Of a stretch of 64,000 nucleotides of DNA, positions 4,510-45,788 are shown piece after piece. The DNA lies in the NCBI GenBank assembly GCA_052103595.1, contig JBQEKC010000002.1, positions 56,131 to 120,130 of the forward strand, written 5' to 3'. Each line of letters opens with the position of its first letter. The first letter of the stretch is position 1. The notes below the pieces were generated by a model, which ran no database searches, was not told where the DNA came from, and saw only the letters and a program-made list of their open reading frames with translations. Position numbers and translations under genes: made by a program. The DNA is from Candidatus Saccharimonadales bacterium. Its GTDB lineage: Bacteria; Patescibacteriota; Saccharimonadia; Saccharimonadales; Saccharimonadaceae.

Positions 4510-5082
4510 TTATGACTGGCGTGCCACCTCTGCCGCCGCCAAAAAATCATCAATCAACGTTTGACGCATGCTGCCATTATAGAGTGCTGCTGCCGGGTGA
4601 TATAACGGAATCACTAAGAACTCGTGATTATGGTACACCACGGGACGTGCCTTGCCGTGCTCCTGCGAAATCTTTAGCTTTGGAATAAAACACGCGCCAC
4701 TGTGCCGCCCCAAGGTAATCACTACACGCGGGTTAATAAGTTCAAGTTGGCGCATGAGATACGGCCAAAATGCCCGCTTTTCTGCGTCTGACGGGTCACG
4801 ATTATGTGGCGGACGATATTTTACTATGTTTGTAATATAGACATCCGAGCGCTCCATACCAGCCGCTCGCAACATTTCGTCTAAAAATTTGCCGCTAGCG
4901 CCAACAAACGGCTTACCCTGCAAATCTTCGTTTTTTCCGGGTGCCTCGCCGATGAACACAATATCGGCCTGCGGATTGCCATCGCCCATTACCAATTGCG
5001 TCGCCTGCGCGGCAAGTTCTGGGCAAATGTTTTTTGCGATAATATCGTGTTGCAATTCATCAAGAGAAGCGAGTTGATCCAT
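4510..5082 (-). CDS. udg: uracil-DNA glycosylase, family 4-like
   Basis: Motifs GDGNPQADIVFIGEAPGKNEDLQGKPFVGASGKFL and ITNIVKYRPP. Start moved to MDQLASL (5082) because an extended -10 box lies inside the longer ORF. Confidence 0.85.
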   Translation of the reverse strand: MDQLASLDELQHDIIAKNICPELAAQATQLVMGDGNPQADIVFIGEAPGKNEDLQGKPFVGASGKFLDEMLRAAGMERSDVYITNIVKYRPPHNRDPSDAEKRAFWPYLMRQLELINPRVVITLGRHSGACFIPKLKISQEHGKARPVVYHNHEFLVIPLYHPAAALYNGSMRQTLIDDFLAAAEVARQS

Positions 5083-5088
5083 GACTCT

Positions 5089-5097
5089 ATTATAGCA
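5089..5097 (-). promoter_or_regulatory. extended -10 box abutting start codon (leaderless-type)
   Basis: Minus strand reads TGcTATAAT agagtc ATG (N=6). Confidence 0.55.
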
Positions 5098-5164
5098 CCC
5101 TAGCAAAAACATCCTCGCCGAGAAGCGCCCCCGACGAGAATGTTTTGCATAAATAGAAGTGACG

Positions 5165-5824
5165 TTACTTTTTGCCGTTTGCTTTGTCGGTCACGAGCCG
5201 ACCAAGGTCATTCAGCTGATCGTTCACCTCAAGATCTTGCAAACCGTCTTGCGTCTTCTTCAAAGAGTCAGTTGCTTCAGATGCTTGATCCCGCACGTCG
5301 CGCGCCACGCTCATCATCTTGCTTGAATCGCGTGCGATGTAAGCTGCCTGCAGTTGCTTCATTGGATCTTTCAAGCCTTCATATGCTTTACCCATTTCAT
5401 TACCAAGCGCTGCGAGTGATTCGTTGTCAGATTCTGACAGTGTCTTGAGCGCCGTCAAACATGGGCCAATTTCTTCACTGTACGTATCACCTACCTTATC
5501 GTAACCAGCGCGCAAAATACCGTTCACCTTCGAAGCGCTACATTCTTCGCCAACCTGCAACACTGTGTCGCCAGAATTCACAAATCCGTCCATAAACCCA
5601 ACGAATTTTTCGTTTTGCTCAGCAAAAGTATCGTACTTTTCTTTCACTTCTTCATCGCGAAGCGCTTTCATGCCAGAAAGCTCGTCGACTGATGTTTTGT
5701 ACGAATCAAGTGACGATTTCATGTCGTCAATGTTCACTGAGTCGGTGTTTCCCGAGTTCATAGCACGCACAAGGTTGCGACCTTCGGTACTCAAGCTACG
5801 ATATGAGTTGTTGACGTCGCTCAT
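5165..5824 (-). CDS. hypothetical helical protein
   Basis: 219-aa ORF with clean codon periodicity, charged/helical composition, no TM or signal peptide. No family recognised. Confidence 0.6.
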   Translation of the reverse strand: MSDVNNSYRSLSTEGRNLVRAMNSGNTDSVNIDDMKSSLDSYKTSVDELSGMKALRDEEVKEKYDTFAEQNEKFVGFMDGFVNSGDTVLQVGEECSASKVNGILRAGYDKVGDTYSEEIGPCLTALKTLSESDNESLAALGNEMGKAYEGLKDPMKQLQAAYIARDSSKMMSVARDVRDQASEATDSLKKTQDGLQDLEVNDQLNDLGRLVTDKANGKK

Positions 5825-5927
5825 TTTTTCGTGCGCTTCTTTGTAATCAGCCTGCGTTGGGCCACTTAAGAAATCTCCTCCTGTGTAGTGCTTCTATCAT
5901 ACCTTGTTTTGATACATTATGCGAAAA

Positions 5928-5961
5928 AAGAACCCCGTTGCTACCTGCAAACGGAGTTCTT
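5928..5961 (-). terminator. Rho-independent terminator after pnp
   Basis: 12-bp stem aagaaccccgtt/aacggagttctt (1 mismatch). Minus-strand reading is followed by TTTTTT. Confidence 0.65.
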
Positions 5962-5983
5962 TTTGTGGATAAACAGCTGCGGT

Positions 5984-8098
5984 TTATTCCATATCACGCA
6001 TGGTCAGCGCTAAGCGACCACGGTCGTCAATGCTGGCGAGTTTCACTCGCACCATCTGACCTTCACTCAACACATCAGTCACGTTTTCAATACGTTCGTT
6101 GCTGATCTGGCTAATGTGCAGCATGCCATCAATCCCTGGCATAATGTTCACAAAGGCCCCAAAGTCTTTAATCGTTACCACTTTTCCTTCGTAGATTTTG
6201 CCGACTTCTGGCTCTTCGGTAAGATCTTTAATCCACTGCAAAGCGCGCTCGATGCTTGGGCCGTTGGCGCTCGCAACCGTAATCAAACCGTCTTCTTTAA
6301 TGTCGATTTCGGCACCAGTTTCAGAGGTGATTTTATTGATCATCTCGCCGCCTTTACCAATCACGGCACCAATTTTGTCTGGGTTGATTTTGATCTTTTC
6401 GATACGTGGCGCAAATGGGCTGAGTGCGTCTTTTGGCGCGGCCAAAATGCTCTTCATGTGATCCATAATATGCATGCGGCCTGGACGCGATTGCTCGACA
6501 GCTTGGCGCAAAATGTCCACCGAAAGGCCGTGCACCTTCATGTCCATTTGGATAGCCGTGACGCCCTTTTCGGTACCAGTTACCTTAAAGTCCATGTCGC
6601 CAGCGAAGTCTTCCGCGTCAGCAATATCGCTCAGCACGTATGGCGTATCACCATCCATCATAAGCCCCATAGCGATTCCGCTCACTGGCGCCTTCAGTGG
6701 CACACCCGCGTCCATCAATGCCAAACAGCTTGAACAGGTTGCTGCCATCGATGTTGAACCGTTCTGGCTCATGATTTCTGTCACGCTACGAATCGCGTAC
6801 GGGAACTCTTCCGCAGTTGGCAACACTGGTGTGAGCGCGCGTTCTGCTAAGTAGCCGTGGCCAATTTCACGGCGACCTGGGCTGCCAAGGCGGCGCACTT
6901 CGCCCACGGTATAGCCTGGCGCGTTGTAATGGTGCATGTAGCGGCGCTCGCCGTCGGTCACTTCCATCGTATCAACAATTTGTGCGTAGCTCAGTGGCGC
7001 CAATGTAACAATGTTCATCGCCTGCGTTACCCCGCGAGTAAACAAGCTCGATCCGTGCGTGCGTGGCAAAATACCAACTTCGCTCGAAAGCGGACGGATT
7101 TCGTCCAGACGGCGACCGTCGGGGCGCAAATTATCTTCAACGATGCCGCGGCGCACATCAAGATGCAATGCCATCGTAAAGGCTTCGTCGTATTCATCAT
7201 GGATTTCTTCGTAGCGATCATTGCCAAATTTTTCTCGCATCGCGTTATGGAATTCCCAACGGATTTCGTTTACAACATTGTTGCGTTCTGGATATTCTTT
7301 ACGGATATTAGAGCCGAACTTTCCATCCACCCAATGATTGACCTCTTCTTGGATGTCAGGGTTTGGCAAAACAAGTTCGTATTCCTGCGCAGCTGGCTGT
7401 ACCTTTTCAACCAGTTCTCTTTGTAGGGCAATGGCTGGCTGCATGTGTTCGTGCGCCCAGGCCATTGCTTCTACGACATCGGCTTCTGGCACTTCGTTGG
7501 CGGCAGCTTCTACCATCGTAATACCGCTTTCAATACCAGCAACTACCAAATCAAGGTCGCTTTGCTCGCGTTCTTCTGGCGTCAAAAAGGCTTTGAATTC
7601 ACCGTTCACACGGCCAACGCGCAAGCCTGCAACTGGACCGTCAAATGGTGCACCGCTCAACATCAGTGCAGTTGACGCAGCAATCATCGCTACCATATCC
7701 GGGCGGAAATCTGGATCCATCGAAAGCACGCTTGAAACCACCTGCACTTCTTGGCGGTAGCCCTTCGGAAACAGTGGGCGGATTGGGCGGTCAATCAAAC
7801 GGCCAATCAAAATTGCTTCATCGCTTGGGCGACCTTCGCGCTTAATAAAACGGCTGCCGCTGATTTTACCCGCTGCATACATTTTTTCTTCGTAATCAAC
7901 ACTGAGCGGGAAATAATCTAGCTGAATTGGCTTCGTGCCAACTTGCGTCGTGCCAAGCACTACGGTGTCACCGTAACGCACCAACACACTTGCCGTCGTA
8001 CGAAAACCAACGCGGTTTACTTCCAGTGTCAATGTTTTGCCGGCAAGCTCTGTGCTGACAGAAATAACGTCCTTGCCGTTTGGATTAATAATAGACAT
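5984..8098 (-). CDS. pnp: polynucleotide phosphorylase
   Basis: Two RNase PH domains plus KH (GKGGEMINKI) and S1 (GKVVTIKDFGAFV). Start at MSIINPNG preceded by AAGGAGG. Confidence 0.95.
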   Translation of the reverse strand: MSIINPNGKDVISVSTELAGKTLTLEVNRVGFRTTASVLVRYGDTVVLGTTQVGTKPIQLDYFPLSVDYEEKMYAAGKISGSRFIKREGRPSDEAILIGRLIDRPIRPLFPKGYRQEVQVVSSVLSMDPDFRPDMVAMIAASTALMLSGAPFDGPVAGLRVGRVNGEFKAFLTPEEREQSDLDLVVAGIESGITMVEAAANEVPEADVVEAMAWAHEHMQPAIALQRELVEKVQPAAQEYELVLPNPDIQEEVNHWVDGKFGSNIRKEYPERNNVVNEIRWEFHNAMREKFGNDRYEEIHDEYDEAFTMALHLDVRRGIVEDNLRPDGRRLDEIRPLSSEVGILPRTHGSSLFTRGVTQAMNIVTLAPLSYAQIVDTMEVTDGERRYMHHYNAPGYTVGEVRRLGSPGRREIGHGYLAERALTPVLPTAEEFPYAIRSVTEIMSQNGSTSMAATCSSCLALMDAGVPLKAPVSGIAMGLMMDGDTPYVLSDIADAEDFAGDMDFKVTGTEKGVTAIQMDMKVHGLSVDILRQAVEQSRPGRMHIMDHMKSILAAPKDALSPFAPRIEKIKINPDKIGAVIGKGGEMINKITSETGAEIDIKEDGLITVASANGPSIERALQWIKDLTEEPEVGKIYEGKVVTIKDFGAFVNIMPGIDGMLHISQISNERIENVTDVLSEGQMVRVKLASIDDRGRLALTMRDME

Positions 8099-8193
8099 TG
8101 TGTCCTCCTTTGTTTCGTAGATAAGTAACAGGGGCAAAAGTTTACGAATAAAACGCTTGTCGCCATCACCAATCTACGACTATTTACCCTTTT

Positions 8194-8202
8194 AGTATAC
8201 CA
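8194..8202 (-). promoter_or_regulatory. extended -10 box upstream of pnp (leadered, about 90 nt)
   Basis: Minus strand reads TGgTATACT. Located between the rpsO terminator and the pnp SD. Confidence 0.4.
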
Positions 8203-8258
8203 TAAACGCGTCAATAACCATGTAGATAGCCCTGCAACCCGCGGCTTCCCGTAAAACA

Positions 8259-8286
8259 AAACACCCTCTCGTTCGAGAAGGTGTTT
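8259..8286 (-). terminator. terminator/attenuator between rpsO and pnp
   Basis: Stem acaccctctc/gagaaggtgt (1 mismatch) with 4-nt loop. Minus-strand reading is followed by TTTTGTTTT. Confidence 0.6.
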
Positions 8287-8304
8287 TGGCGCTAATTTAC
8301 GTAA

Positions 8305-8571
8305 TTATTTACGCAAACCAAGCTTTTCAAGTGTTGCTTTGTACGCGTCAAAGTCGGTTCGTTCAAGATACTTCAAGAGGCGCTTACGCTTACCTACCAT
8401 CTGTACGAGTCCACGACGAGCCATGAAGTCGTGCTTATTCGCCTTCAAGTGCTCTGTAACCTCTTTGATACGAGCCGTCAAAACCGATACCTGTGCCTGT
8501 GGGCTACCAACATCGTTTTTGTTGACCTGAGTCAAAGCAATCGCTTTTTCCTTGTTCTCCTTAGTGATCAT
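8305..8571 (-). CDS. rpsO: 30S ribosomal protein S15
   Basis: MITKENKEKAI...GSPQAQVSVLTARIKEVTEHLKANKHDFMARRGLVQMVGKRKRLLKYL. Classic rpsO-pnp order. Confidence 0.93.
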   Translation of the reverse strand: MITKENKEKAIALTQVNKNDVGSPQAQVSVLTARIKEVTEHLKANKHDFMARRGLVQMVGKRKRLLKYLERTDFDAYKATLEKLGLRK

Positions 8572-8578
8572 CCTTTGT

Positions 8579-8587
8579 AGAATAGCA
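8579..8587 (-). promoter_or_regulatory. extended -10 box abutting rpsO start
   Basis: Minus strand reads TGcTATTCT acaaagg ATG (N=7). The aaagg could alternatively act as a weak SD. Confidence 0.45.
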
Positions 8588-8633
8588 GATTTTGCGCATG
8601 ATTGCAACCGGGCGCGTGCGCTATACTATACAT

Positions 8634-9407
8634 ATGCTACAAATTTTGCTTCATTCGTCCAAAACAATGCGCCACGAACCTGCGGAATATGCGCCGTTCG
8701 ATACGCCACGCTTTTTACCTAAAGCTACTACACTGGCGGATATATGGAAGTCAGCGCCAGCCGAAATCGTTGCCACGCACATGAAGCTTTCCCCTGCTAA
8801 AACCGCCGAAACGCAGCAGCTTTTTGCCAACTGGAGCGCGACGCCGCAGCACCCTATTCCCGCCATTGATGCCTTCAAAGGCGATATCTACAGCGGCCTG
8901 CAAGTTCCCAGCTGGGCAGAAGCGGACCGCCGCTACGCTCACGCACATTTGCTGATTTTATCAGGGCTGTACGGCGCGCTGCGGGCGTGCGATGGTATTG
9001 CGCCGTATCGCCTAGAAATGGGCTACAAATTGCCTGATGGCGCGTCGATGTACGCGTTTTGGGGCGATACGATTGCGCAGGCATTGCCGGCCATCACCTC
9101 TGTTATTATCAATCTTTCGGCGGTTGAATATACCAAGGCACTGCTGCCGCACGTATCGGCGCGCGTCATTACGCCAAAGTTCCTTACCATCAGCCCAAAA
9201 ACCGGTGAACCTACGTTTGTTACCGTGCACGCCAAAATCGCCCGCGGTGCCTTTGCGCGCTGGCTAATTACGCAGAGGGTCGAAGACATATCAGAGTTGC
9301 CTACATTTGCAGAACTTGGCTACCGCTACAACGCCGCGCTCAGTTCGTCAGAACAGCCAGTGTTTGTGTGCGAAATGTTTGCAGGGTTGGGATTGAGCGT
9401 ACGCTGA
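8634..9407 (+). CDS. yaaA: YaaA/UPF0246 (DUF328) peroxide-stress family protein
   Basis: MLQILLHSSKTM start, then FKGDIYSGL, LILSGLYGALRACDGIAPYRLEM, FWGD and HAKIARGAFARW, which match my recollection of the YaaA family pattern. Confidence 0.85.
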   Translation: MLQILLHSSKTMRHEPAEYAPFDTPRFLPKATTLADIWKSAPAEIVATHMKLSPAKTAETQQLFANWSATPQHPIPAIDAFKGDIYSGLQVPSWAEADRRYAHAHLLILSGLYGALRACDGIAPYRLEMGYKLPDGASMYAFWGDTIAQALPAITSVIINLSAVEYTKALLPHVSARVITPKFLTISPKTGEPTFVTVHAKIARGAFARWLITQRVEDISELPTFAELGYRYNAALSSSEQPVFVCEMFAGLGLSVR

Positions 9408-9408
9408 G

Positions 9409-10404
9409 TTAGCGCACTAAATCGTAGTCGTTTTGCGCACCAGGGTGTTGATTTGCCGTATCAAAAGCAGCAAATACATCATTTCGGGCGTGATTAATAG
9501 CCGCCGCTTTTTCGTTCGTTTGGCCATGTTGCGGTGATAACAGATCATGGGCCTCCGGTACTGTTTCTGCTGAACCTGCAGTATCTCCTTCGACAAATTG
9601 TTCGCCATCAGGCTCGGCAATTTCGCTCAGTTCTTGCTGATTCTGTTCACTTTCCTGCAAAACATCATCAAGCGTTTCGGGCGCGTCTTCTGCAGGATCA
9701 CCTTCGCCAACTGGCACCGCCAAATCATACTGCCGAATATTTCGGCCAAGTTCAGCCAGCGTTTCGTTATCTAAACGGTTTGCACCACCCGCTTCTTTCG
9801 CATTCTGAAAGTAGGCGCGCGCAGCCGGGCTTTGAGCCAACAACTGTTGCACATTCGCCAGTGCGTCCGGGTCACCTTCGTCGGCCGCAGCAATCATTTT
9901 TTCCGCAATCGCCACGTTTGCCACATCATTCTGGCTTTCTTGATCCAAAAATTCAGCCTTTCCGACTACCTCTTCACCATCAGCTGCGTTTTCTAATTTT
10001 TCGCCCAAGACGCGCTTTTGCACATCGGTATGGTCCACTTCGCCCACCGCCGTTGGCGACAACGCCGCGTTCGCCTCTTGCGTGGCAATCTCTACACTAT
10101 GCCCAAACGTATGCGCATCCACCGAGTGCGTTTGCGTTAACGCCCCATATGCCTCGGCTACACCTTCAGAGAGCGCCTCTGTGTCACCACTCGAATCTAC
10201 GCCAAGGTGCGCTTTTGCATCAACACTCAATCTATCCACAACTTCTTGCGCATTAAAATCATGCGCCTGCACTTCGCTTACGCCAAATACACCGTTAAGA
10301 TATTCGTTGTACAATTGATTTTGCTCAGCGATTTCTTCCGGTGTTCGTTCGCGCTCCTCGCGCGGTTTTTCTTGTTTTTCGAATGATGCTTGGTCGGGAA
10401 ACAT
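9409..10404 (-). CDS. hypothetical, extremely acidic soluble protein
   Basis: 331-aa ORF, D/E/Q/A-rich, no TM, no recognisable domain. Its stop lies 1 nt from the yaaA stop. Confidence 0.6.
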   Translation of the reverse strand: MFPDQASFEKQEKPREERERTPEEIAEQNQLYNEYLNGVFGVSEVQAHDFNAQEVVDRLSVDAKAHLGVDSSGDTEALSEGVAEAYGALTQTHSVDAHTFGHSVEIATQEANAALSPTAVGEVDHTDVQKRVLGEKLENAADGEEVVGKAEFLDQESQNDVANVAIAEKMIAAADEGDPDALANVQQLLAQSPAARAYFQNAKEAGGANRLDNETLAELGRNIRQYDLAVPVGEGDPAEDAPETLDDVLQESEQNQQELSEIAEPDGEQFVEGDTAGSAETVPEAHDLLSPQHGQTNEKAAAINHARNDVFAAFDTANQHPGAQNDYDLVR

Positions 10405-37092: not shown

Positions 37093-39981
37093 CTCCTTTT
37101 GGTTCAGCTTCAACAATCGCCATATCACAAAGACGATCAGTAAGAAGCCGAGGAAAAGGAGAAGTACCACTGTAAAGCTGCGCAAGAAGTATAGCACTGC
37201 CACCACGACCGCGATAATTCCCCACCAAAGCGCCCACTGCGCGCGGAGTAGTCCAGCCACAACCACCAACACCAAATGCTCAACCAAGAAGAAGAACGAA
37301 TAGCCAGCCTGCCCGTCAAGTGCGTACAGCCCACTTGAACCTGTTACAAACGCCAACGCCACCACCATGCGGTGAAGATAAGCTTTTCGCCAAAGCGCCA
37401 TAACAGCAATCGTGAGCGCCCACCAGTGCGCATATACTACCATATTTGCCTCTGGGAGCAGCAATGACACCATCCATTGCAGTGCAAGCGTACCGCCGTA
37501 GACTGCCGCTTCTTGAACGTCGCGCTGCTTCTTTAGCGCACCATGTATACCAACAACCGCCGCCAGCACTAGGAGCGACCCTGCCGAAGCAAGCGCCAAC
37601 TGCGTACCTGCTTCTACGACACCATACAACGCTGCATAGCCCAGCAATAGTATCACCGACCCAAGCTGAATTGGCTCGCGTTCTTCGTCGTGCTGAGAAC
37701 GAAGCAACCAGTATGCGCCGTAAAATACCGCTGCGCCAAGCCAAGCAACGCCATGCACGAGCCAGGTTGCTGAAAAGTCGAGCCATGACCACAACGACAC
37801 GAGCCCTGCAATAAACAATATATTGCCAATTGCTGCGCCAGCTGGTCGCGATTCAACATATGACCCCGCCCAAAGAAGCGCACCGTACACAAAGAGTGTC
37901 AATGTTTGCCAACCACCATCAAGCGCACTCGCGCCAAGCAGCGCCAAAAACGGATACAACACATACGCAACAAGAAGCATTGTCGCAAGTCGTGGTGAAC
38001 GCGCACCAAGCAACTGCCGTGCCACAATTGCCACTACACTGGCCACAAGCAACACCACCACTGCAATGCGTGACACGACCACTCCATACGTAAATACAAA
38101 CGCAACGCTTGCCAGCACTGCCGCAGCCAGCATTGCCAGCGCATCTCGTCGACGTTTTTGGCCATATTGTTGATGAAGTGAGGCGCCAATCAACAACAAC
38201 ATCGTCGAAACAAGCACAGTTAAGAGCCACCACCAGCGCGTTTCATCAAGCGCCCATTGTAGCCACGCACTGACCGACACCACACCAAGTACTGCGCCAA
38301 TCACTTCGAAGCTCACACGCGATACAATCAACGACAACCCAATCAACACGCCTGCTGCCACAAGACTTGTCCAGCCAAGTGCCGTTGCCGATAGTTCCGC
38401 TGCACCGCATAACACTAATACGCCAGCACTGACCGCGACACTCGTCATACAAAGCGTGCGGAGCTGCACGCTCGCTTTCGTCGACGTGAGGCGCTCGATC
38501 GTCACAAGGCTCACTACGCCAAGCGCCGCAAAGAACACGGCAATTAATTCAAAGGAAAGCGCTGGTTCAAATACACCACGCCCAATCACAAATGGCAACA
38601 CAATCACTGCTACCAGTACGCCGTACAGTGGCTCTACTTTCTTAAAAGCGTGTGCCGACCATCCGCAGATTCCCGCCATCAAGGCAATCGTTACTGCGAT
38701 CCAATGATATGGGTGCGACACACCGCCCCATAATAGGAGCGTCCACCCCATCATTGCCAGTGCAACGCCAATCCAAGCAGCTTCGTGGCGAACACTTTTT
38801 GTGTTCTTTCGCTGCACTCGTAGTAAGCTGTAGAGCGCCTGCGCAAAAGCTAGACCAAACCAACCAAGATTATGGATCAATAAAGCTTCTTGTTCGCTTG
38901 TTCGCCCAGCTGCGTCAGCTACCACAATCAGCCCTGTTATGTGCGCGATAATACGCACCACCACTTCGTAGCGCCAGTTTTTTGTCAGTGCCCATATCAC
39001 CAGGTAATGTGCCGTTGCGAGCCCAAAGAGTACTTCATACATCCATATACTCATCGCATCCATCACCAGCACGCTTCCTGCGAGCGCCACTGGCGTCACT
39101 ATAAGTCCGGTATGTTCAAGTGGCTTTCGCACTACGCGTGGCACTGCTTTTGGATACAACAATAATGCTAAATTACACAACAACGATACGCCAATAATCA
39201 CCACGAAATACCACAGCACAGCAAGGCCAATCGTCGACACTGCCGATAGCGCCAATGACAACATAAACGCCATCATTGCATACGAAATAAATTCGCTTTG
39301 CAAACGCAGTGCAGCCACGCCGTATGCCACCAAGCCAAGCAATGACGTTAAGAACCAGGCCATCTCAGCCGAGACACCACCGAGCAGATGGAATGCAAAT
39401 CCTAAGAAAGGAATAATCGCTAAACCCGTACCGGTAAAAGCGGTTGCCGCTGAACGCAGTCGCGTCGACTTTTCATGCAGCACTAAACCTGTTACATAGA
39501 ACGCCAGCGTGACCACAATCATCGAACCTAAGCGCACCGCTGCTGGCATAGTAAGATTCACAAATAGTGCGGTTGCCGCCACAATTAAAAAGCTGCCCAC
39601 ATAGAGCATAATGTTCAAGTTACGCACGGTGCGACGCGCTTTTTCTGCCGCAAGTAGTTCTTCGCTTGGTGGAGCAATATCATCTGCTATTACTCTTGCA
39701 GGCACGGCAGTAGCAGCAAAAGTAGTCGGATGCACCTTTTGCGCATCACTTGGAAGTGGAATAGCAAGCTCCTCATCGTCACTAGGTGTCACACCAAGGA
39801 GCTCGTCAAGTTTCTGGGGCGACACTACTCCGTCAGTCCGTAGTTCTTCAATTTCTTGGCGAAGCGCAGCTCGTCCATCAGTCACACCACGCTGATATTC
39901 ATCTGTACGGGGCGCTGGCTGATCGGCGCGCATTCGCAATATGATAATAAACAAAATGACCGCTACGATAAACCAAAACAT
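37090..39981 (-). CDS. very large polytopic membrane protein (possibly DUF2339-like)
   Basis: 963 aa: N-terminal TM helix, a roughly 100-aa charged linker, then more than 20 predicted TM helices by eye. The family assignment is tentative. Confidence 0.75.
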   Translation of the reverse strand: MFWFIVAVILFIIILRMRADQPAPRTDEYQRGVTDGRAALRQEIEELRTDGVVSPQKLDELLGVTPSDDEELAIPLPSDAQKVHPTTFAATAVPARVIADDIAPPSEELLAAEKARRTVRNLNIMLYVGSFLIVAATALFVNLTMPAAVRLGSMIVVTLAFYVTGLVLHEKSTRLRSAATAFTGTGLAIIPFLGFAFHLLGGVSAEMAWFLTSLLGLVAYGVAALRLQSEFISYAMMAFMLSLALSAVSTIGLAVLWYFVVIIGVSLLCNLALLLYPKAVPRVVRKPLEHTGLIVTPVALAGSVLVMDAMSIWMYEVLFGLATAHYLVIWALTKNWRYEVVVRIIAHITGLIVVADAAGRTSEQEALLIHNLGWFGLAFAQALYSLLRVQRKNTKSVRHEAAWIGVALAMMGWTLLLWGGVSHPYHWIAVTIALMAGICGWSAHAFKKVEPLYGVLVAVIVLPFVIGRGVFEPALSFELIAVFFAALGVVSLVTIERLTSTKASVQLRTLCMTSVAVSAGVLVLCGAAELSATALGWTSLVAAGVLIGLSLIVSRVSFEVIGAVLGVVSVSAWLQWALDETRWWWLLTVLVSTMLLLIGASLHQQYGQKRRRDALAMLAAAVLASVAFVFTYGVVVSRIAVVVLLVASVVAIVARQLLGARSPRLATMLLVAYVLYPFLALLGASALDGGWQTLTLFVYGALLWAGSYVESRPAGAAIGNILFIAGLVSLWSWLDFSATWLVHGVAWLGAAVFYGAYWLLRSQHDEEREPIQLGSVILLLGYAALYGVVEAGTQLALASAGSLLVLAAVVGIHGALKKQRDVQEAAVYGGTLALQWMVSLLLPEANMVVYAHWWALTIAVMALWRKAYLHRMVVALAFVTGSSGLYALDGQAGYSFFFLVEHLVLVVVAGLLRAQWALWWGIIAVVVAVLYFLRSFTVVLLLFLGFLLIVFVIWRLLKLNQKE

Positions 39982-40086
39982 TAGCTTCTACTCCCCTACG
40001 CTTACGTATGCTTTTATCTTACCATATTGCGTCACGAAAAAAGCGCCTCCTTTTTACAGGAAGCACTTTTTAGCTGAAGACGGTTT

Positions 40087-40260
40087 TTATTGGCAGCCTT
40101 CGCACATTGTCAGCTCTGCTGGATCGAGTGGCGCAAAGGCGGTTCCCTCTGCTGAAGCTTTCGCTTGTGCGTCAGCTTGGGCGTTCGCCATCGCTTGATC
40201 AATTGCAGAAAGTTTTTCTTCTAGTGTCATGTCGTCTGTGATAAGTTGTGTTGCGTTCAT
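40087..40260 (-). CDS. 57-aa acidic microprotein ending in CEGCQ
   Basis: Has its own promoter, and SD AGGGGG precedes the MNATQ start. Ends ...PLDPAELTMCEGCQ*. Sits directly downstream of nrdB. Confidence 0.5.
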   Translation of the reverse strand: MNATQLITDDMTLEEKLSAIDQAMANAQADAQAKASAEGTAFAPLDPAELTMCEGCQ

Positions 40261-40308
40261 GTCCATCCCCCTATGAAACAATGTTATTTTTAGTGGCGCT
40301 TATGGTTA

Positions 40309-40336
40309 ATTATACGCTAGATATGGTGCTTGTCTA
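40309..40336 (-). promoter_or_regulatory. promoter TAGACA-16-TATAAT for the microprotein gene
   Basis: Minus strand reads TAGACA agcaccatatctagcg TATAAT, about 45 nt upstream of the SD and ATG. Confidence 0.5.
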
Positions 40337-40381
40337 GAAATTTTGCGTGTAAAAATACCAACAGGCCTGTGGAATACTTTT

Positions 40382-41383
40382 TTATTTTGTTGTGTTTACT
40401 TCGTAACTGGTGTTCGTGCTTTCAAAGAAGTTTACGAGCTCTAGCGTATCATTGGCAGCCGCCATCCATTTCGCTGGATTTGGCACGTTATATTCAGGTT
40501 CAAAGCCAAGCTCAACCAAACGACGATCGGTCATATGCATCACGTACTGATTGACGTAGTCCGCGTTCAAGCCCAAAATGCCCTTTGGCAGCATATCTTT
40601 GTTATATTCTTTTTCGAGTTCAACCGCTTGCAAAATCAATTGGCGGATTTCTTCGGCGAATTCTTCGGTCTGAAGCTCTGGATTTTCGTCTAGGATAGTC
40701 AGCAGCAAATTGATACCAAAGGTCAGGTGGAGGTTCTCGTCGCGGGTGATCCAGTCCAGCAGCGAACCAACGTTGCGGAGCAAGTTGCGCTGGCGGAAGC
40801 TCATACCCACCATAAAGCCACTGTAGAACCAAATGCCTTCGAGCACAATATTGTATGCCACGAGCGAGCGAACAAAATCTTTCTTACCTTCAAGGCTGTA
40901 GATGTCGAGGTTTGGGTCGAGCATGACATCGAGGTGCTTGTTTTGGAAGTCGGCTTTGTCGGCCAAACTCTTCTTACCAAAACCGGCTTCGTAGATTTCT
41001 TCGCGATTGAACGGGAACGTTTCAATAATGTATTCAAACGTCATGAAGTGGTTGGCTTCTTCCCACATTTGCTTGCTCAAATACAGCTGGGCTTCCGCTG
41101 AGTTAACGTACGGGTAAATGCCGAACGCCAACGACTTGTTGATCAGCAACTCGTTTGGGTTGAGGTAGCTAATCACGGTTTTGAGCGCGTGCTTTTCGTC
41201 GTCGGTCATTTTTTCGAAGTCGCCAAGGTCTTGCACAAGCTGGATTTCATTTGGAAACCACGTATTTGCCACGGCCTGGTTGTACAAATCATACGCCCAT
41301 TGATATCGAATTGGACGTAAATTCAGTCCATCACGGAGTCCCGATCCGAGAATGCCGCCTTTTGGATGTTGATAATCTGCCAT
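40382..41383 (-). CDS. nrdB: ribonucleotide reductase small subunit, class Ic-like (R2c)
   Basis: Ferritin-like R2 with EEANH and RDENLHL metal motifs. Phe occupies the radical-Tyr position and Glu the first ligand position (see findings). Confidence 0.93.
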   Translation of the reverse strand: MADYQHPKGGILGSGLRDGLNLRPIRYQWAYDLYNQAVANTWFPNEIQLVQDLGDFEKMTDDEKHALKTVISYLNPNELLINKSLAFGIYPYVNSAEAQLYLSKQMWEEANHFMTFEYIIETFPFNREEIYEAGFGKKSLADKADFQNKHLDVMLDPNLDIYSLEGKKDFVRSLVAYNIVLEGIWFYSGFMVGMSFRQRNLLRNVGSLLDWITRDENLHLTFGINLLLTILDENPELQTEEFAEEIRQLILQAVELEKEYNKDMLPKGILGLNADYVNQYVMHMTDRRLVELGFEPEYNVPNPAKWMAAANDTLELVNFFESTNTSYEVNTTK

Positions 41384-41404
41384 AAGATTCCCCTCTCTGA
41401 CTGC

Positions 41405-41626
41405 TTAAAATAACGTTTCTTCTTGTGACATTGTCGGCGCTTCCAGCTGATCACCACGACTAGCTGGTACTTCGTACGCATCACGATCAACCGTAAAAAG
41501 TGCAAGTCCGCCAAGTTCCGTATCAAGCCGATGCAGCTCATCGAGCCGCTCTTGCTGCCACTCACTCGAGTGGTCTTCCTGTGTTAATTCTGTGATAAGT
41601 GCCTCACGTTGTGCAAATTCGTGCAT
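41405..41626 (-). CDS. hypothetical 73-aa acidic protein between nrdA and nrdB
   Basis: ATG lies 3 nt after the nrdA stop with AAGGAAGGGG just upstream (translational coupling). No Cys and no recognised family. Confidence 0.5.
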   Translation of the reverse strand: MHEFAQREALITELTQEDHSSEWQQERLDELHRLDTELGGLALFTVDRDAYEVPASRGDQLEAPTMSQEETLF

Positions 41627-41629
41627 ATG

Positions 41630-44038
41630 CTACCCCTTCCTTTTTGCAAAGCCAAAGCCACGACTTGCTCCGCCTTGCGTCTTTACTTTTTGTGCGGCTA
41701 ATTTCTCTACCGACACCGTCGTTTGTTCTGACTGATGACGCGGCTTTACGTGCAAATAGTACGTGGTTTTCAAGCCGCGCTTCCACGCTTCGGTGTAGAT
41801 TTTCACGTACTCGTCGATATCGCGCGTATCAAGATACATGTTACGGCTAATCGCTTGGTCGACCCATTTTTGGGCACGCGCTGCTACTTCGATAAACGAA
41901 TATGGGCTCAGCTGGAAGCTGGTTTTGTAAACCGCTTTAATTTCATCTGGAATGCCGTCGATATTTTGGATGTCGCCTTGGTTAGCAAAGACTTCTTCTT
42001 TGAGCGATTCCCACAAATCAAGTTCTTTTAGGTCGCGAACAAGATTTGCATTCACTTCCAAGAATTTTCCGTTCAAGGTTGAGCGACTAAAGATTTGCGC
42101 AAATTGCGGATCAAGCCCTGGTGTCGTACCAGCAATATGGCCGATGTTAGCGGTTGGTGCAATTGCCATCAAGGTGGCGTTTCGCATACCCTTTTTCACT
42201 TTCGTGCGCAGCGCTTCCCAATCAAGCTTGGCTTTTTTATTGACGTTCACTTTTACTTTGCGATCAGTCGCCAGCGTATCGATTGTATCGATTGGCAAAA
42301 TACCTTTACTCCAGCCGCTACCCTTAAATGCTGGGTAACTGCCGAGCGTTTTGGCAAGCTCAGCCGATTCATCAATCGCGTGATAACTAATATATTCGGT
42401 AACTTGATCAATCAAGCCTGCCGCTTCTTCTGAATCGTAGCTAAGGTGCAGTTTTTCAAGTACATCAGTAAAGCCCATCAACCCAAGGCCGAGCGCGCGC
42501 GTTTGGCTATTAGCGTGCATCGCTTCTGGCACTGGCAAATTCGTTATGTCAACCAAGTTGTCCAGCTGGCGAATTGCGCTGCGAGCGCTACTTGCCAAAC
42601 GATCCCAATCCCACGATTTGTCATCGTTCAGGTGCGCCGAAAGGTTAATGCTCACCAAGTTACACACCGCAATATTGTCTTTGTCTTGCGGCAGCGTAAT
42701 TTCGGTACACAAGTTTGAGAGGTGGATTGTACCAGTGTTATTGTTCAAGGCGCGGACGTTGATCGTGTCCTTCCAGGTCAGCCATGGGTGGCTGGTTGCC
42801 TGCAACTGAATCAAAATCGAGCGGAACTGCTGACGAGCTGAAATCTTCTCAAATTTACGCAATTTTCCGGCATCCGCTAGCTTCACATATTCTTTATAAC
42901 GCTTGCTAAATTCCGCACCATAGAGTTCTGTCAAATCCATCACTTCGGCTGGGTCAAACAAATACCAGTCGTCGTCTTTTTCGACGCGCTTCATAAATTC
43001 GTCGCTAATAAATACGGCCGTGTTTGCAAAACGAGTACGCAGGTACGGGTCACCCGAGTTTTGCTTCAAGTCCAAAAACTGTGCAAAATTGAGGTGCCAG
43101 TTTTCCATGTAGATCGCAGCAGCGCCGGCTTTTTTACCCTTTCGGCTGACCGCGAACAATGCTGTATCGATCATTTTCATGAACGGAATTGGGCCGGTAC
43201 TTTCCGTGTTTGTCGTCTTCACCGGAGAACCAGCTGCGCGTAGTTTCGTAAAGCCAATGCCAATACCGCCGGTGCCTTTCGCGATAAACGCCGTGTCGCG
43301 CACCGATTTTACAATCGATTCCATATCGTCATCAACATTCATCAAAAAACAATTCGAAAGCTGCGGATGCGCGCCGCCAGCATTTACACGAGTTGAGCCA
43401 CCCGGCACATAATCCAGGCTCGACATGTGTTCATAAAAATCAAGCGCCGATTCGGTAGGGTTTTTAGCATTGTAGCTGAGGCCCATCGCAATACGCATGT
43501 GCGTAAATTGCGGCACTTCCATCGGTTCACTGCTACCTTTTCGCAACGCATAGCGGTTACGGTTGGTAATGACGCCCAAATATTTTGAAAGGTCGTCTTT
43601 TGATGGATCGAGCGCTTTGGCAAGCTTCTTAATATCAAAAACTTTTTTGTCGTTCATGCGTGGATCAAGCAACCCAAGCTCCACCGCTTCTTTCAAATAC
43701 GTTGGAAATGCCTTCTCGTGCATGGCTTTTAGTTCATCGTTCTTTTTGTAGTTGCCCAGCACCTTCTTGTAGATAGTCTTAAGCAACAAACGTGCCGCAA
43801 TCTTGTCATAGTCTGGATCATCTTTTACGTTTTGCAGCGTTGCATTAATCACCGCTTCATCTAATTGTTCGGTGGTAATACCATCAAACAATGTCAGCTG
43901 TAGCTGGCTGGCTACCTCAACAACTTTACTAATTTGATCCGGCAAACCTTCACTTGCTTCTACCAATGCAAGATTAATTTTGTTTGCATCAAATGGTTCG
44001 CGTGTGCCATCGCGTTTTACCACATGAATTTGACTCAT
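41630..44038 (-). CDS. nrdA: ribonucleotide reductase large subunit, class I, with one N-terminal ATP-cone
   Basis: ATP-cone VVKRDGTREPFDANKI; active-site contexts SNCFLM, SNLCTEI and AVCNLVSINL; TTYYLH radical-transfer pair. No Cys in the last roughly 40 aa. Confidence 0.95.
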   Translation of the reverse strand: MSQIHVVKRDGTREPFDANKINLALVEASEGLPDQISKVVEVASQLQLTLFDGITTEQLDEAVINATLQNVKDDPDYDKIAARLLLKTIYKKVLGNYKKNDELKAMHEKAFPTYLKEAVELGLLDPRMNDKKVFDIKKLAKALDPSKDDLSKYLGVITNRNRYALRKGSSEPMEVPQFTHMRIAMGLSYNAKNPTESALDFYEHMSSLDYVPGGSTRVNAGGAHPQLSNCFLMNVDDDMESIVKSVRDTAFIAKGTGGIGIGFTKLRAAGSPVKTTNTESTGPIPFMKMIDTALFAVSRKGKKAGAAAIYMENWHLNFAQFLDLKQNSGDPYLRTRFANTAVFISDEFMKRVEKDDDWYLFDPAEVMDLTELYGAEFSKRYKEYVKLADAGKLRKFEKISARQQFRSILIQLQATSHPWLTWKDTINVRALNNNTGTIHLSNLCTEITLPQDKDNIAVCNLVSINLSAHLNDDKSWDWDRLASSARSAIRQLDNLVDITNLPVPEAMHANSQTRALGLGLMGFTDVLEKLHLSYDSEEAAGLIDQVTEYISYHAIDESAELAKTLGSYPAFKGSGWSKGILPIDTIDTLATDRKVKVNVNKKAKLDWEALRTKVKKGMRNATLMAIAPTANIGHIAGTTPGLDPQFAQIFSRSTLNGKFLEVNANLVRDLKELDLWESLKEEVFANQGDIQNIDGIPDEIKAVYKTSFQLSPYSFIEVAARAQKWVDQAISRNMYLDTRDIDEYVKIYTEAWKRGLKTTYYLHVKPRHQSEQTTVSVEKLAAQKVKTQGGASRGFGFAKRKG

Positions 44039-44295
44039 CTTATACCCTCTTTGCTACGTCTATATGTTTTATGTTATACACCTCCCCGTGCAAAGCTCCC
44101 TCAAACTTTTTACAAGGTACAGAAAAGAACTCGGCGTAGCCGACCGAAGTAAACCTCCCTGTATTCTGTTTGTTTTACCACTTGCTAAATGTAGCGGTCT
44201 ATCTAAGACTATAGCCGCTAGATATAGCTTATGCAAGGCTTTTACCTGATTAAATGTTGTATATTTTAACCTTTCACTAAATGACCTCTGTTGTG

Positions 44296-44336
44296 TACAT
44301 ATAGTGTTGTAAGTTGCTATAGCGCCACTATATGTG
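44296..44336 (-). promoter_or_regulatory. two inverted copies of an AT-centred near-palindrome (NrdR-box-like) upstream of nrdA
   Basis: Plus strand reads tacatatagtg (44296-44306) and cactatatgtg (44326-44336). The centres are 30 bp apart, resembling tandem NrdR boxes. Confidence 0.35.
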
Positions 44337-44342
44337 GGTATT

Positions 44343-45788
44343 TTACGCTTGACACCGCTGCTGCAGCGCTTCTGCTGGCATAAAATTATCAGTGTAGCGC
44401 TGCTGTGAATTGGTATGCACTTTTGCATACTCCGGAAGTGCAAAAGGTGTCTTGCTGTACGCTAAAATCATATTCCCTCGTGTTGAAGCGTCATTTTGAA
44501 AACGCTCATAATGCAAGGTACTGACATCGCTGTAGGCACCATTAATTGCATCATAGAGTGGCTGACAAGCACCTTTGGCTGCAGCAATCGCATTTACCGC
44601 CACGACGCCATCTTTCGCCAGCAATTTCTTTACGCGTTGGCCGTATTCGTGCGTTAGTAACGAAAACGGTACGCTTGCATCGTTGTACACATCCACCAGA
44701 ATGACGTCATACTGTGCTGTCACCTCGTTCACAAACACGCGCGCATCAGTATAATGCAGTGTTATGTTTGTCGGGTCGTCATACAAAAAGTGCTGTCGCG
44801 CAATATCTGTCATCGCTGGGTCAATTTCTACCACATCAATTTGTGAAGTGGGATATGTCGCTGCTAGATGGCGCGGCAAAGTATAGGTGCCGCCACCAAG
44901 TACTAACATGCGCTCTTTCTTTGGCGCCGCAGCTACCACACGAGCAAGCTCTTTCGTATACCAAAAAACAAGTTCGTTCGGCTGATCTGGGTAAATGCCC
45001 GACTGCACACCATTTGGACCTGCCAAAATACCACGAACCGTTCGTGTGTCGTCATTTTGATATGTCACAATTCGGTATGAAGCCGTTGGCGTATCGACAA
45101 CCTGCTGCGATGAATGAAACAGCGATAATACCATCACACCGCCAAGCACGACTGTTGCTGTAATCTTTTCGCGCAGACGCTCTTTTGAAGGAAGCAGCCA
45201 CCCCGACACCACTAAAACCCCAATCAATACAACCAACGTCTCACGAGACCCAATCATGCCAAACAACAAAAACCCTGCCACAAAGGTTCCCGCAATGCTG
45301 CCAATAGAATTAATAGCACTCAGCGTGGCGACAGTTTGCCCACTTGTTTGTAGCGAAGTAATCGACAACTTTGCCAAATACGGGCTCATCATTCCTAGTA
45401 ACACGCTAGTCGGCGCAAATAACACTAACGCTACGACAATGCCTTGAAGGCGCTGATCGCCAAACCATGACGTCACCACAGACATAACTGGCGCAAATAA
45501 ATACATAACGCTCGCCATACAAAGCGCAGCCACAAAGCAAAGCATCGCAACATCGGTGCGGCTATGGCGACGGTCAGCCATCTTACCACCAAGGTAGTAG
45601 CCAAGGCTTAACGCTACCATAATTACCCCAATCACGCTCGTCCACACATACACCGAATTGCCAATACTTGGCGCCAACATGCGCGCCGCAACCAATTCAA
45701 ATGCCATCAATACAAACCCCGACGTAAACGCAATTACTTCAAGTGAATAAACAGAACGCCAAAGGTGTTTTTGAAGATATTTTTGCAT
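44343..45788 (-). CDS. fused polytopic membrane / spermidine-synthase-like methyltransferase-fold protein
   Basis: N-terminal roughly 200 aa carry TM helices. The C-terminal part has LVLGGGTYTLPR, IDVVEIDP and YDVILVDVYND (spermidine synthase-like). Second ATG chosen from -10 spacing. Confidence 0.8.
   Translation of the reverse strand: MQKYLQKHLWRSVYSLEVIAFTSGFVLMAFELVAARMLAPSIGNSVYVWTSVIGVIMVALSLGYYLGGKMADRRHSRTDVAMLCFVAALCMASVMYLFAPVMSVVTSWFGDQRLQGIVVALVLFAPTSVLLGMMSPYLAKLSITSLQTSGQTVATLSAINSIGSIAGTFVAGFLLFGMIGSRETLVVLIGVLVVSGWLLPSKERLREKITATVVLGGVMVLSLFHSSQQVVDTPTASYRIVTYQNDDTRTVRGILAGPNGVQSGIYPDQPNELVFWYTKELARVVAAAPKKERMLVLGGGTYTLPRHLAATYPTSQIDVVEIDPAMTDIARQHFLYDDPTNITLHYTDARVFVNEVTAQYDVILVDVYNDASVPFSLLTHEYGQRVKKLLAKDGVVAVNAIAAAKGACQPLYDAINGAYSDVSTLHYERFQNDASTRGNMILAYSKTPFALPEYAKVHTNSQQRYTDNFMPAEALQQRCQA

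Follow-up and report, generated by a model that had tools for sequence, protein, structure and literature searches.

A 57-residue microprotein of Saccharibacteria as the probable trans-acting redox tail of class I ribonucleotide reductase

The question raised by the locus described here is how a class I ribonucleotide reductase (RNR) might be re-reduced after turnover when its catalytic subunit, NrdA, has lost the C-terminal pair of cysteines on which this step relies. The locus lies in a 64,000-nucleotide stretch of DNA from Candidatus Saccharimonadales bacterium (GenBank assembly GCA_052103595.1, contig JBQEKC010000002.1, positions 56,131 to 120,130 of the forward strand), referred to below as the window. 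An original prediction, made from the sequence of the window, had proposed that a stand-alone microprotein of 57 residues encoded beyond nrdB may be a detached, trans-acting version of the missing tail. In E. coli NrdA the tail pair consists of C754 and C759, a CxxC arrangement being found in most class I enzymes, and in yeast the tail of R1 reportedly acts in trans on the neighbouring subunit; in vitro, a fused tail can be bypassed by small reductants. A fused tail uses its terminal dithiol to reduce the disulfide of the active site, and the dithiol is afterwards restored by thioredoxin, glutaredoxin or NrdH (PMC6187632, PMC9669993, PMC4520616). Reviews place a cysteine pair on the NrdA of all, or almost all, class I RNRs (PMC6187632, PMC9669993). 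The likely explanation, to which we give a probability of about 0.75, is that in Saccharibacteria the microprotein serves class I NrdA as a trans-acting redox tail, separated from it by gene fission. This reading is supported by homology of the microprotein to fused tails, its complementarity with tail-less NrdA, its linkage to RNR genes and a common putative operator.

The locus, its tail-less NrdA and the microprotein

The genes concerned, and the elements of NrdA discussed below, are the following.

41630-44038, minus strand: nrdA, catalytic subunit, 802 residues (open reading frame (ORF) listing and Pfam/NCBIfam domain matches)
40382-41383, minus strand: nrdB, radical-generating subunit, 333 residues (domain matches)
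40087-40260, minus strand: microprotein gene, 57 residues plus stop (ORF listing and homologues)
41633-41752, minus strand: cysteine-free C-terminal stub of NrdA, VKPRHQSEQ...GFGFAKRKG
41648-41659, minus strand: GFGF motif, NrdA residues 794-797, with a few basic residues after it

Read along the minus strand, the ORF listing and translation give nrdA, a spacer of 246 nucleotides, nrdB and the microprotein gene. Pfam assigned an ATP-cone, an all-alpha domain and the RNR barrel to NrdA. The only cysteines of this protein are C230 (SNCFLM), C444 (SNLCTEI) and C459 (AVCNLVSINL), which constitute the catalytic trio, and the YY pair is present in the motif TTYYLH; the active-site contexts named in the original prediction were thus all found in the translation. 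The sequence that follows TTYYLH, VKPRHQSEQTTVSVEKLAAQKVKTQGGASRGFGFAKRKG, contains no cysteine. The count is likewise zero in the final 40 residues, which end in GFGFAKRKG, and NCBIfam model NF005101 covers NrdA at positions 2-788 of 822, leaving its last 34 positions unmatched, so that the claimed loss of cysteines from the C-terminus held. GFGF[AS][KR] and a few further residues close every tail-less Saccharibacteria NrdA (86 tails), and GFGF might serve as a docking or hinge element. The same motif is also seen in tailed relatives ahead of a long linker, sometimes twice.

The microprotein (MNATQLITDDMTLEEKLSAIDQAMANAQADAQAKASAEGTAFAPLDPAELTMCEGCQ) begins with MNATQ, finishes with PLDPAELTMCEGCQ and has CEGCQ as its last five residues. 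A search of 5.8 billion proteins returned at least 255 homologous clusters at 90% identity, nearly all of exactly 57 residues, and those homologues that carried a label were annotated as 'hypothetical protein' and assigned to Saccharimonadales or Patescibacteria. When 26 diverse members were aligned, M11-T-L-E-E-K-L17, A19, I20, G39, P44, D46, P47, T51, C53, G55 and C56 proved invariant. The overall build is that of a conserved N-terminal helix (MTLEEKLxAIDxAM), a linker rich in alanine and glutamine and a P-x-D-P-x5-C-x-G-C-Q end. The terminal cysteine pair (C53-E-G-C56-Q) was kept in all 26 aligned homologues and stood in register in 119 of 120 cluster representatives; the two cysteines, on whose conservation the original prediction had staked its case, are therefore invariant among homologues. 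Given the number of homologous clusters, the near-constant length and the invariant C53, G55 and C56, the ORF cannot be attributed to chance. An ending of the type C..C[QE] was found in 82 of 22,016 six-frame ORFs from 90 related loci, and 78 of these 82 were the microprotein. The AF2 model consists of a single helix (residues 13-38); residues 39-57 are without regular structure save one short turn, and residues 52-57 have a predicted local distance difference test score (pLDDT) below 50, by which the cysteine end is predicted to be flexible or disordered. No meaningful match was obtained against Pfam, NCBIfam, PHROGs or PDB sequences. The microprotein does not have the features of a thioredoxin fold, since it matches no domain, is modelled as a single helix and carries its CxxC at a disordered C-terminus. 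Two loci, L061 (4396-4533) and L105, have a further, incomplete copy immediately behind the first.

With NrdA as query, HMMER retrieved 150 diverse relatives (50% identity representatives) from 1.84 billion representative proteins. A C..C motif ends 132 of these, typically in the form C-x(3-9)-C-[ED]-[SA]-C-Q. In the closest relatives that have a tail, the protein finishes with CP[IT]DPxERxxC[DE]SCQ, and the end of the microprotein, APLDPAELTMCEGCQ, lies in exact register with them: P-x-D-P, five residues, C-x-x-C-Q and the stop (...FAPLDPAELTMCEGCQ). The corresponding ends are CPIDPAERAQCDSCQ in P0121 (58% identity; longer, ...VKVCPIDPAERAQCDSCQ), CPTDPAERALCESCQ in P0122 (53% identity; longer, ...ACPTDPAERALCESCQ), CPIDPQERLQCESCQ in P0260 (59% identity; longer, ...ACPIDPQERLQCESCQ) and ...ACPIDPFEKVMCTSCQ in P0207. 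When the 150 representatives were searched with a hidden Markov model (HMM) of the microprotein, the extreme C-termini of P0122, P0207, P0121 and P0260 were matched with E = 0.004-0.06, the best reversed decoy having E = 2.5, and HMM positions 41-57 fell on the last 16-17 residues of the matched NrdA. The pattern P.DP.{5}C..C[QE]$ was present in 192 of the 46,627 six-frame ORFs in all the DNA retrieved; these were accounted for by 189 matches to the microprotein HMM, the copy in the window and two second tail peptides in phage contigs, leaving a background of zero. This comparison goes further than the original prediction, the C-terminus of the microprotein matching the nearest fused tails residue for residue.

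The tailed proteins P0121, P0122 and P0260 carry the motifs KPRH..EQSTV.VNK and GFG(F), then a low-complexity linker of 60-130 residues and finally the CxxCQ end. Since Saccharibacteria NrdA stops just after GFGF, the fission break would have fallen inside this linker.

Linkage to RNR genes and transcription signals

A scan seeded with NrdA and limited to one genome per species gave 80 Saccharibacteria loci at 77-97% identity, or 86 together with the earlier loci. The microprotein HMM matched 73 of the 80, always on the strand of nrdA, and in the remaining seven the contig breaks off within the 2 kb that follow nrdA. None of the 86 Saccharibacteria NrdA tails contains a cysteine, and the microprotein was present in all 79 genome loci having enough flank, so that no tail-less NrdA without a partner, which would have spoken against a split enzyme, was seen among them. 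The gene order was nrdA-nrdB-microprotein in 65 loci (window included) and nrdA-microprotein-nrdB in 14. NrdA from loci of the latter order (KPRHQAEQST.KVNK) is nearer to the tailed outgroups than NrdA from loci of the former, which fits fission in place followed by relocation as the probable direction of change.

In a metagenome scan seeded with the microprotein, 80 loci were recovered. Either or both of nrdA and nrdB adjoined the microprotein gene in 62, and in 36 of these 62 it lay directly after nrdA, a position that it takes in about 30-45% of loci overall. In the other 18 no nrd gene was visible; they comprised four that match upstream-cut cellular loci (L129, L150, L151 and L170), six short fragments and eight phage contigs. 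The genomic association on which the original prediction depended was consequently upheld for the cellular copies (73/73 NrdA-seeded loci and 62/62 non-phage, microprotein-seeded loci with flank), but not for the phage copies, which have no nrd gene close by. Two contigs with Saccharibacteria-type nrdA (L010 and L023, 84-89% identity) are labelled Acidobacteriota and Dongiaceae, probably through binning contamination.

Where the microprotein gene adjoins nrdA, the spacer measures 8-100 nucleotides, and the three possible frames are all represented (21, 14 and 9 loci), which argues that the microprotein is translated independently. Readthrough or programmed frameshifting that would restore a fused NrdA-tail protein is ruled out by the same spacers. 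In the window there is no covalent continuity with the NrdA barrel, the microprotein being a separate ORF beyond nrdB, 1.1 kb downstream of nrdA.

The following signals surround the microprotein gene and nrdA in the window.

40266-40272, minus strand: Shine-Dalgarno-like AGGGGGA, 5 nucleotides upstream of the microprotein ATG, read from the sequence
40309-40336, minus strand: sigma-70-like promoter of the microprotein gene, TAGACA, 16-nucleotide spacer, TATAAT (11/12 matches)
40038-40071, minus strand: intrinsic terminator hairpin and U-tract directly after the microprotein stop (-23.1 kcal/mol, z = -5.3)
40315-40328, no strand assigned: NrdR-box-like palindrome, a candidate operator between the -35 and -10 elements of the microprotein promoter
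44183-44196 and 44216-44229, no strand assigned: two copies of the palindromic box upstream of nrdA, 33 bp apart

The ORF, promoter and Shine-Dalgarno-like site put forward in the original prediction were all located, and none of 200 shuffled sequences folded as well as the terminator hairpin. By its predicted promoter, ribosome-binding site and terminator, the microprotein gene is a complete transcription unit in the window. The NrdR operator is a 16-bp palindrome (acaCwAtATaTwGtgt) that precedes nrd genes, frequently as a tandem pair with a spacing of about three helical turns. The palindrome at the microprotein promoter reads CACCATATCTAGCG; its family consensus, CGCTATATATAGCG, resembles the NrdR-box consensus. 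The exact 10-mer ATATCTAGCG has two copies in the 64-kb window, one in the microprotein promoter and one upstream of nrdA, for an expectation of 0.13. Across the related loci the palindrome aCGCTATATATAGCGt was strongly enriched upstream of the microprotein gene and of nrdA, and variants with CAC arms exist. In a census of dereplicated related loci (up to 2 mismatches, within 130 nucleotides upstream of the microprotein gene), loci of the order nrdA-nrdB-microprotein had a box upstream of the microprotein gene in 51 of 61 cases and upstream of nrdA in 23 of 61. For the order nrdA-microprotein-nrdB the figures were 0/12 and 10/12, respectively, and the background rate was 0.064 per kb. As the distribution of the box follows gene order, the microprotein gene would have kept or gained the nrd operator on moving away from nrdA, and co-regulation of the microprotein and nrdA through a common putative operator is supported. 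No nrdR gene was found in the 64-kb window.

The best PDB match of the NrdB encoded in the window was the R2 protein of C. trachomatis (1SYY, E = 1.7e-72). Its segment EEANHFMTF aligns to EEAVHTHTF, with a phenylalanine at the position of the tyrosyl radical and a glutamate as first metal ligand, which implies a class Ic-like NrdB and, by extension, a predicted Mn/Fe cofactor in Saccharibacteria. An ORF of 73 residues in the nrdA-nrdB spacer (41405-41626, minus strand) was rejected as probably no gene, being unconserved apart from one weak tblastn match (L028). In some close relatives this spacer is only 39 nucleotides long, as opposed to the window, where it holds that ORF. An Rfam scan of positions 39000-45000 gave no match.

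Detached tails in other NrdA lineages

Tail-like ORFs or domains encoded apart from NrdA were found at the following related loci (coordinates are those of each locus).

L087, 1380-1499: 39-residue ORF overlapping the nrdA stop (ATGA), ending in ...VPIDPMESLMCDSCQ (...IVPIDPMESLMCDSCQ); NrdA 65% identical to that of the window
L212, 4832-4996, and L213, 4797-5015: ORFs of 31-35 residues about 1 kb upstream of nrdA, ending in ...VVDGIVCPVDPMELLNCESCQ (...VDVVDGIVCPVDPMELLNCESCQ)
L221 (phage-like), 8595-8723: 42-residue ORF 34 nucleotides after an intein-bearing nrdA, ending in ...KACSIDNPDCEACQ (...PKACSIDNPDCEACQ)
L090, 5387-5686, and L091, 2938-3231: glutaredoxin-domain protein directly after a tail-less nrdA, with an extension ending in YETCASCEG or YEVCENCQ

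The NrdA proteins of L212 and L213 (61-62% identical) end in GFGFAVAKN, and the end of their peptide is nearly that of the fused tail of P0260. The ORF of L221 ends in the commonest fused-tail sequence. At L090 and L091, where NrdA is about 38% identical, the adjacent proteins appear from their sequences to be fusions of a redoxin with a shuttle tail. In database searches, this glutaredoxin-tail protein gave four matches and the 35-residue peptide three. Locus L087 has a high guanine-cytosine content and is labelled Naasia sp.; its Saccharibacteria-type nrdA may stem from gene transfer between host and epibiont.

Control loci with a tailed NrdA (L088 and L214-L218) contained no tail-like ORF besides NrdA itself, and in L088, the locus of a tailed relative, no microprotein-like ORF was found. 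Among the other tail-less loci, no detached tail was seen in the DNA available for L222 and L223, and L089 has no flank. In L222 a protein of 1300 residues (5001-8903), in a phage-like context, joins DNA polymerase III beta-clamp domains to an ATP-cone and a complete RNR large subunit that has no tail cysteines, an unusual fusion. From these comparisons tail detachment looks recurrent among NrdA lineages; of the forms found here, only that of Saccharibacteria is fixed across a large clade.

Proposed mechanism, alternatives and significance

We propose that turnover would oxidise C230 and C459 of NrdA to a disulfide. The flexible C53-x-G-C56 dithiol of the microprotein would then enter the active site and reduce this disulfide by thiol-disulfide exchange, and a thioredoxin-type system, with its genes elsewhere in the genome, would in turn restore the oxidised microprotein. 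Ahead of the cysteines stands P-x-D-P-x5, a segment also present in fused tails, which probably guides the tail to the entrance of the active site. The invariant N-terminal helix would dock on NrdA, possibly near the GFGF stub, and in doing so probably replaces the lost tether; this helix is specific to the form found in Saccharibacteria and phages, and is absent from the 31-42-residue peptides.

Several observations weigh against a shuttle function. The homology to fused tails spans only about 16 residues, so that no database-scale E-values can be given, and an HMM of general scope, derived from 132 diverse NrdA tails, ranked the microprotein top in the window, but with E = 0.58. The microprotein also has two of the three cysteines that are usual in its NrdA clade. 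A free peptide would, moreover, have to become concentrated enough near the active site to be effective, and thioredoxin or glutaredoxin motifs were found neither in the window nor in about 200 related loci. Finally, 40 IMG/VR viral contigs (L172-L211) encode the microprotein, and neither nrdA nor nrdB lies within 10 kb of it. Its neighbours there include terminase, amidase, RusA, exonucleases, polynucleotide kinase, RNA ligase and methylases, and no redoxin or RNR families were found among them. Because these contigs carry it alone, the microprotein need not be encoded beside RNR and could have a wider role.

The contigs in question presumably belong to Saccharibacteria phages, and the eight metagenome loci that contain the microprotein only (L107, L115, L119-L121, L124, L131 and L164) are the same phages. 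Some phage copies are near-identical over about 175 nucleotides to the gene as it occurs in oral Nanosynbacter-type genomes, which argues for recent exchange between phage and host. A scan of viral contigs for NrdA, by a method that detects close relatives only, found none on those bearing the microprotein, and a tblastn search of GenBank phages with the microprotein gave no match. In two phage loci, L191 (10156-10305) and L193 (295-477), a second, different tail peptide ending in ...YIIPIDPMDELQCDSCQ directly follows the first. It is possible that the phages encode an RNR beyond the 10-kb flanks, or that the microprotein has a wider role; the reading that needs the fewest assumptions, though a speculation, is that the phage copy may be an auxiliary gene that provides an extra shuttle to the tail-less RNR of the host. 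Phage L119 has a cluster of tRNA-like genes (6490-6810) just upstream of the microprotein gene, and its DNA polymerase exonuclease subunit (8212-9894) is split by an intein with a LAGLIDADG domain.

The original prediction had itself offered a second reading, that of a minimal dedicated reductant. The microprotein would then resemble NrdH in function, be fed by thioredoxin reductase or a low-molecular-weight thiol and replace both tail and redoxin. Such a role would suit the lack of thioredoxin and glutaredoxin genes in the window and related loci, as well as a position in the nrd operon like that of nrdH in class Ib (PMC6187632), and the proteins of L090 and L091, which join a tail to a glutaredoxin domain, indicate that the combination is possible. 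We nevertheless regard it as unlikely: the microprotein has no Pfam or NCBIfam match and no thioredoxin fold, its homology is to the NrdA tail and not to any redoxin, and a four-residue CxGC loop at a disordered terminus is no known substrate of thioredoxin reductase. This reading and that of a shuttle tail part ways only over what feeds electrons to the microprotein. We judge it more improbable still that the microprotein regulates RNR without delivering electrons, be it as an inhibitor of the Sml1/Spd1 type, a modulator of activity or assembly, or a redox sensor. A small, partly disordered protein with an invariant helix would be well suited to protein binding, the operator is common with nrdA, and phages might use such a factor to manipulate the host RNR. 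A regulator alone, however, would leave the tail-less NrdA without a route for re-reduction by a redoxin. Neither the cysteine pair nor its place at the C-terminus varies, and both have their homologue in the catalytic shuttle; the 31-42-residue detached tails found elsewhere have no extra domain, and an inhibitor would be odd for phages that need deoxyribonucleoside triphosphates (dNTPs).

In E. coli a small ferredoxin, YfaE, is encoded after nrdB. By analogy, the microprotein could deliver metal to the Mn/Fe site of NrdB or maintain this cofactor, its two cysteines binding a metal or, in a dimer, a cluster. Its position immediately after nrdB in most loci and the unusual class Ic type of this NrdB would agree with such a role, to which we nonetheless assign a very low likelihood, for in a third or more of the loci the gene lies between nrdA and nrdB, the protein has only two cysteines, no ferredoxin fold and homology to the NrdA tail, and analogous detached tails accompany tail-less NrdA in other NrdA clades. 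The least probable explanation in our estimation is that the microprotein has no functional relation to RNR and is a conserved small gene present in the locus by chance, with a role that is also useful to phages. The varied contexts of the phage copies, which are without RNR genes, would be expected in that case, but the linkage in every cellular locus despite two gene orders, the common operator and the end-to-end tail similarity would each have to be fortuitous.

The preferred reading, a detached and trans-acting tail, can be compared with systems already described. The microprotein resembles fused class I tails in its terminal C-x-x-C-[QE], the P-x-D-P-x5 register, its predicted disorder and the same catalytic cysteine pair in NrdA. 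It differs from them in being a separate gene with its own predicted promoter, operator, ribosome-binding site and terminator in the window, and from the fused tails of its nearest relatives in having two rather than three cysteines and a conserved N-terminal helix as a gain. A split of this kind is known in the class II RNR of P. aeruginosa, where NrdJa is catalytic and NrdJb, which is required in vivo, provides the C-terminal cysteines, its main role being thiol-disulfide exchange through them (PMC4520616). Both systems have a catalytic chain that lacks C-terminal cysteines and receives them from the product of an adjacent gene. NrdJa/NrdJb is, however, an adenosylcobalamin-dependent class II enzyme, and NrdJb, a folded protein with IscU-like and zinc-finger parts, shares no sequence similarity with the microprotein, which has 57 residues, two cysteines, no domain matches and a class I NrdA as partner. 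Fusions of glutaredoxin with NrdB occur in Facklamia and Francisella, and NrdH and glutaredoxin are small CxxC proteins dedicated to RNR (PMC6187632). They have a thioredoxin fold and reduce the tail of NrdA or NrdE, whereas the microprotein lacks this fold and is itself the counterpart of the tail. The glutaredoxin-tail proteins of L090 and L091 bridge these two ideas, redoxin fusion and tail detachment. The belief expressed in the original prediction that no split of this kind had been described does not hold for class II (PMC4520616); it stands for class I, for which our literature search, whose incomplete coverage makes an earlier description possible, found no detached tail, no account of the microprotein family and no paper on Saccharibacteria NrdA.

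The rule of a fused tail in class I RNR is broken in every Saccharibacteria nrd locus that we examined (about 150 genome and metagenome loci). A function is hereby proposed for a conserved hypothetical gene in an essential pathway of ultrasmall, host-dependent bacteria, one of a family of very short genes (31-57 residues) that are often missed by gene callers. The system would also be a natural one in which to study how the tail finds the active site, tail and enzyme being open to mixing, mutation and trapping separately, and it suggests a new kind of phage auxiliary gene acting on dNTP synthesis in the host. Detached forms now include the Saccharibacteria 57-mer, peptides of 31-42 residues in no fewer than three further NrdA lineages and the glutaredoxin-tail fusions. 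We tentatively suggest, at a little short of even odds, that free tail peptides are a recurrent, hitherto unrecognised third component of class I RNR, detached several times independently, and that Saccharibacteria phages have captured the peptide, in some cases as two tandem paralogues, as an auxiliary gene by which they raise the turnover of the tail-less host RNR during infection. If this is true, the re-reduction of RNR would be a diffusible, separately regulated step that viruses can exploit.

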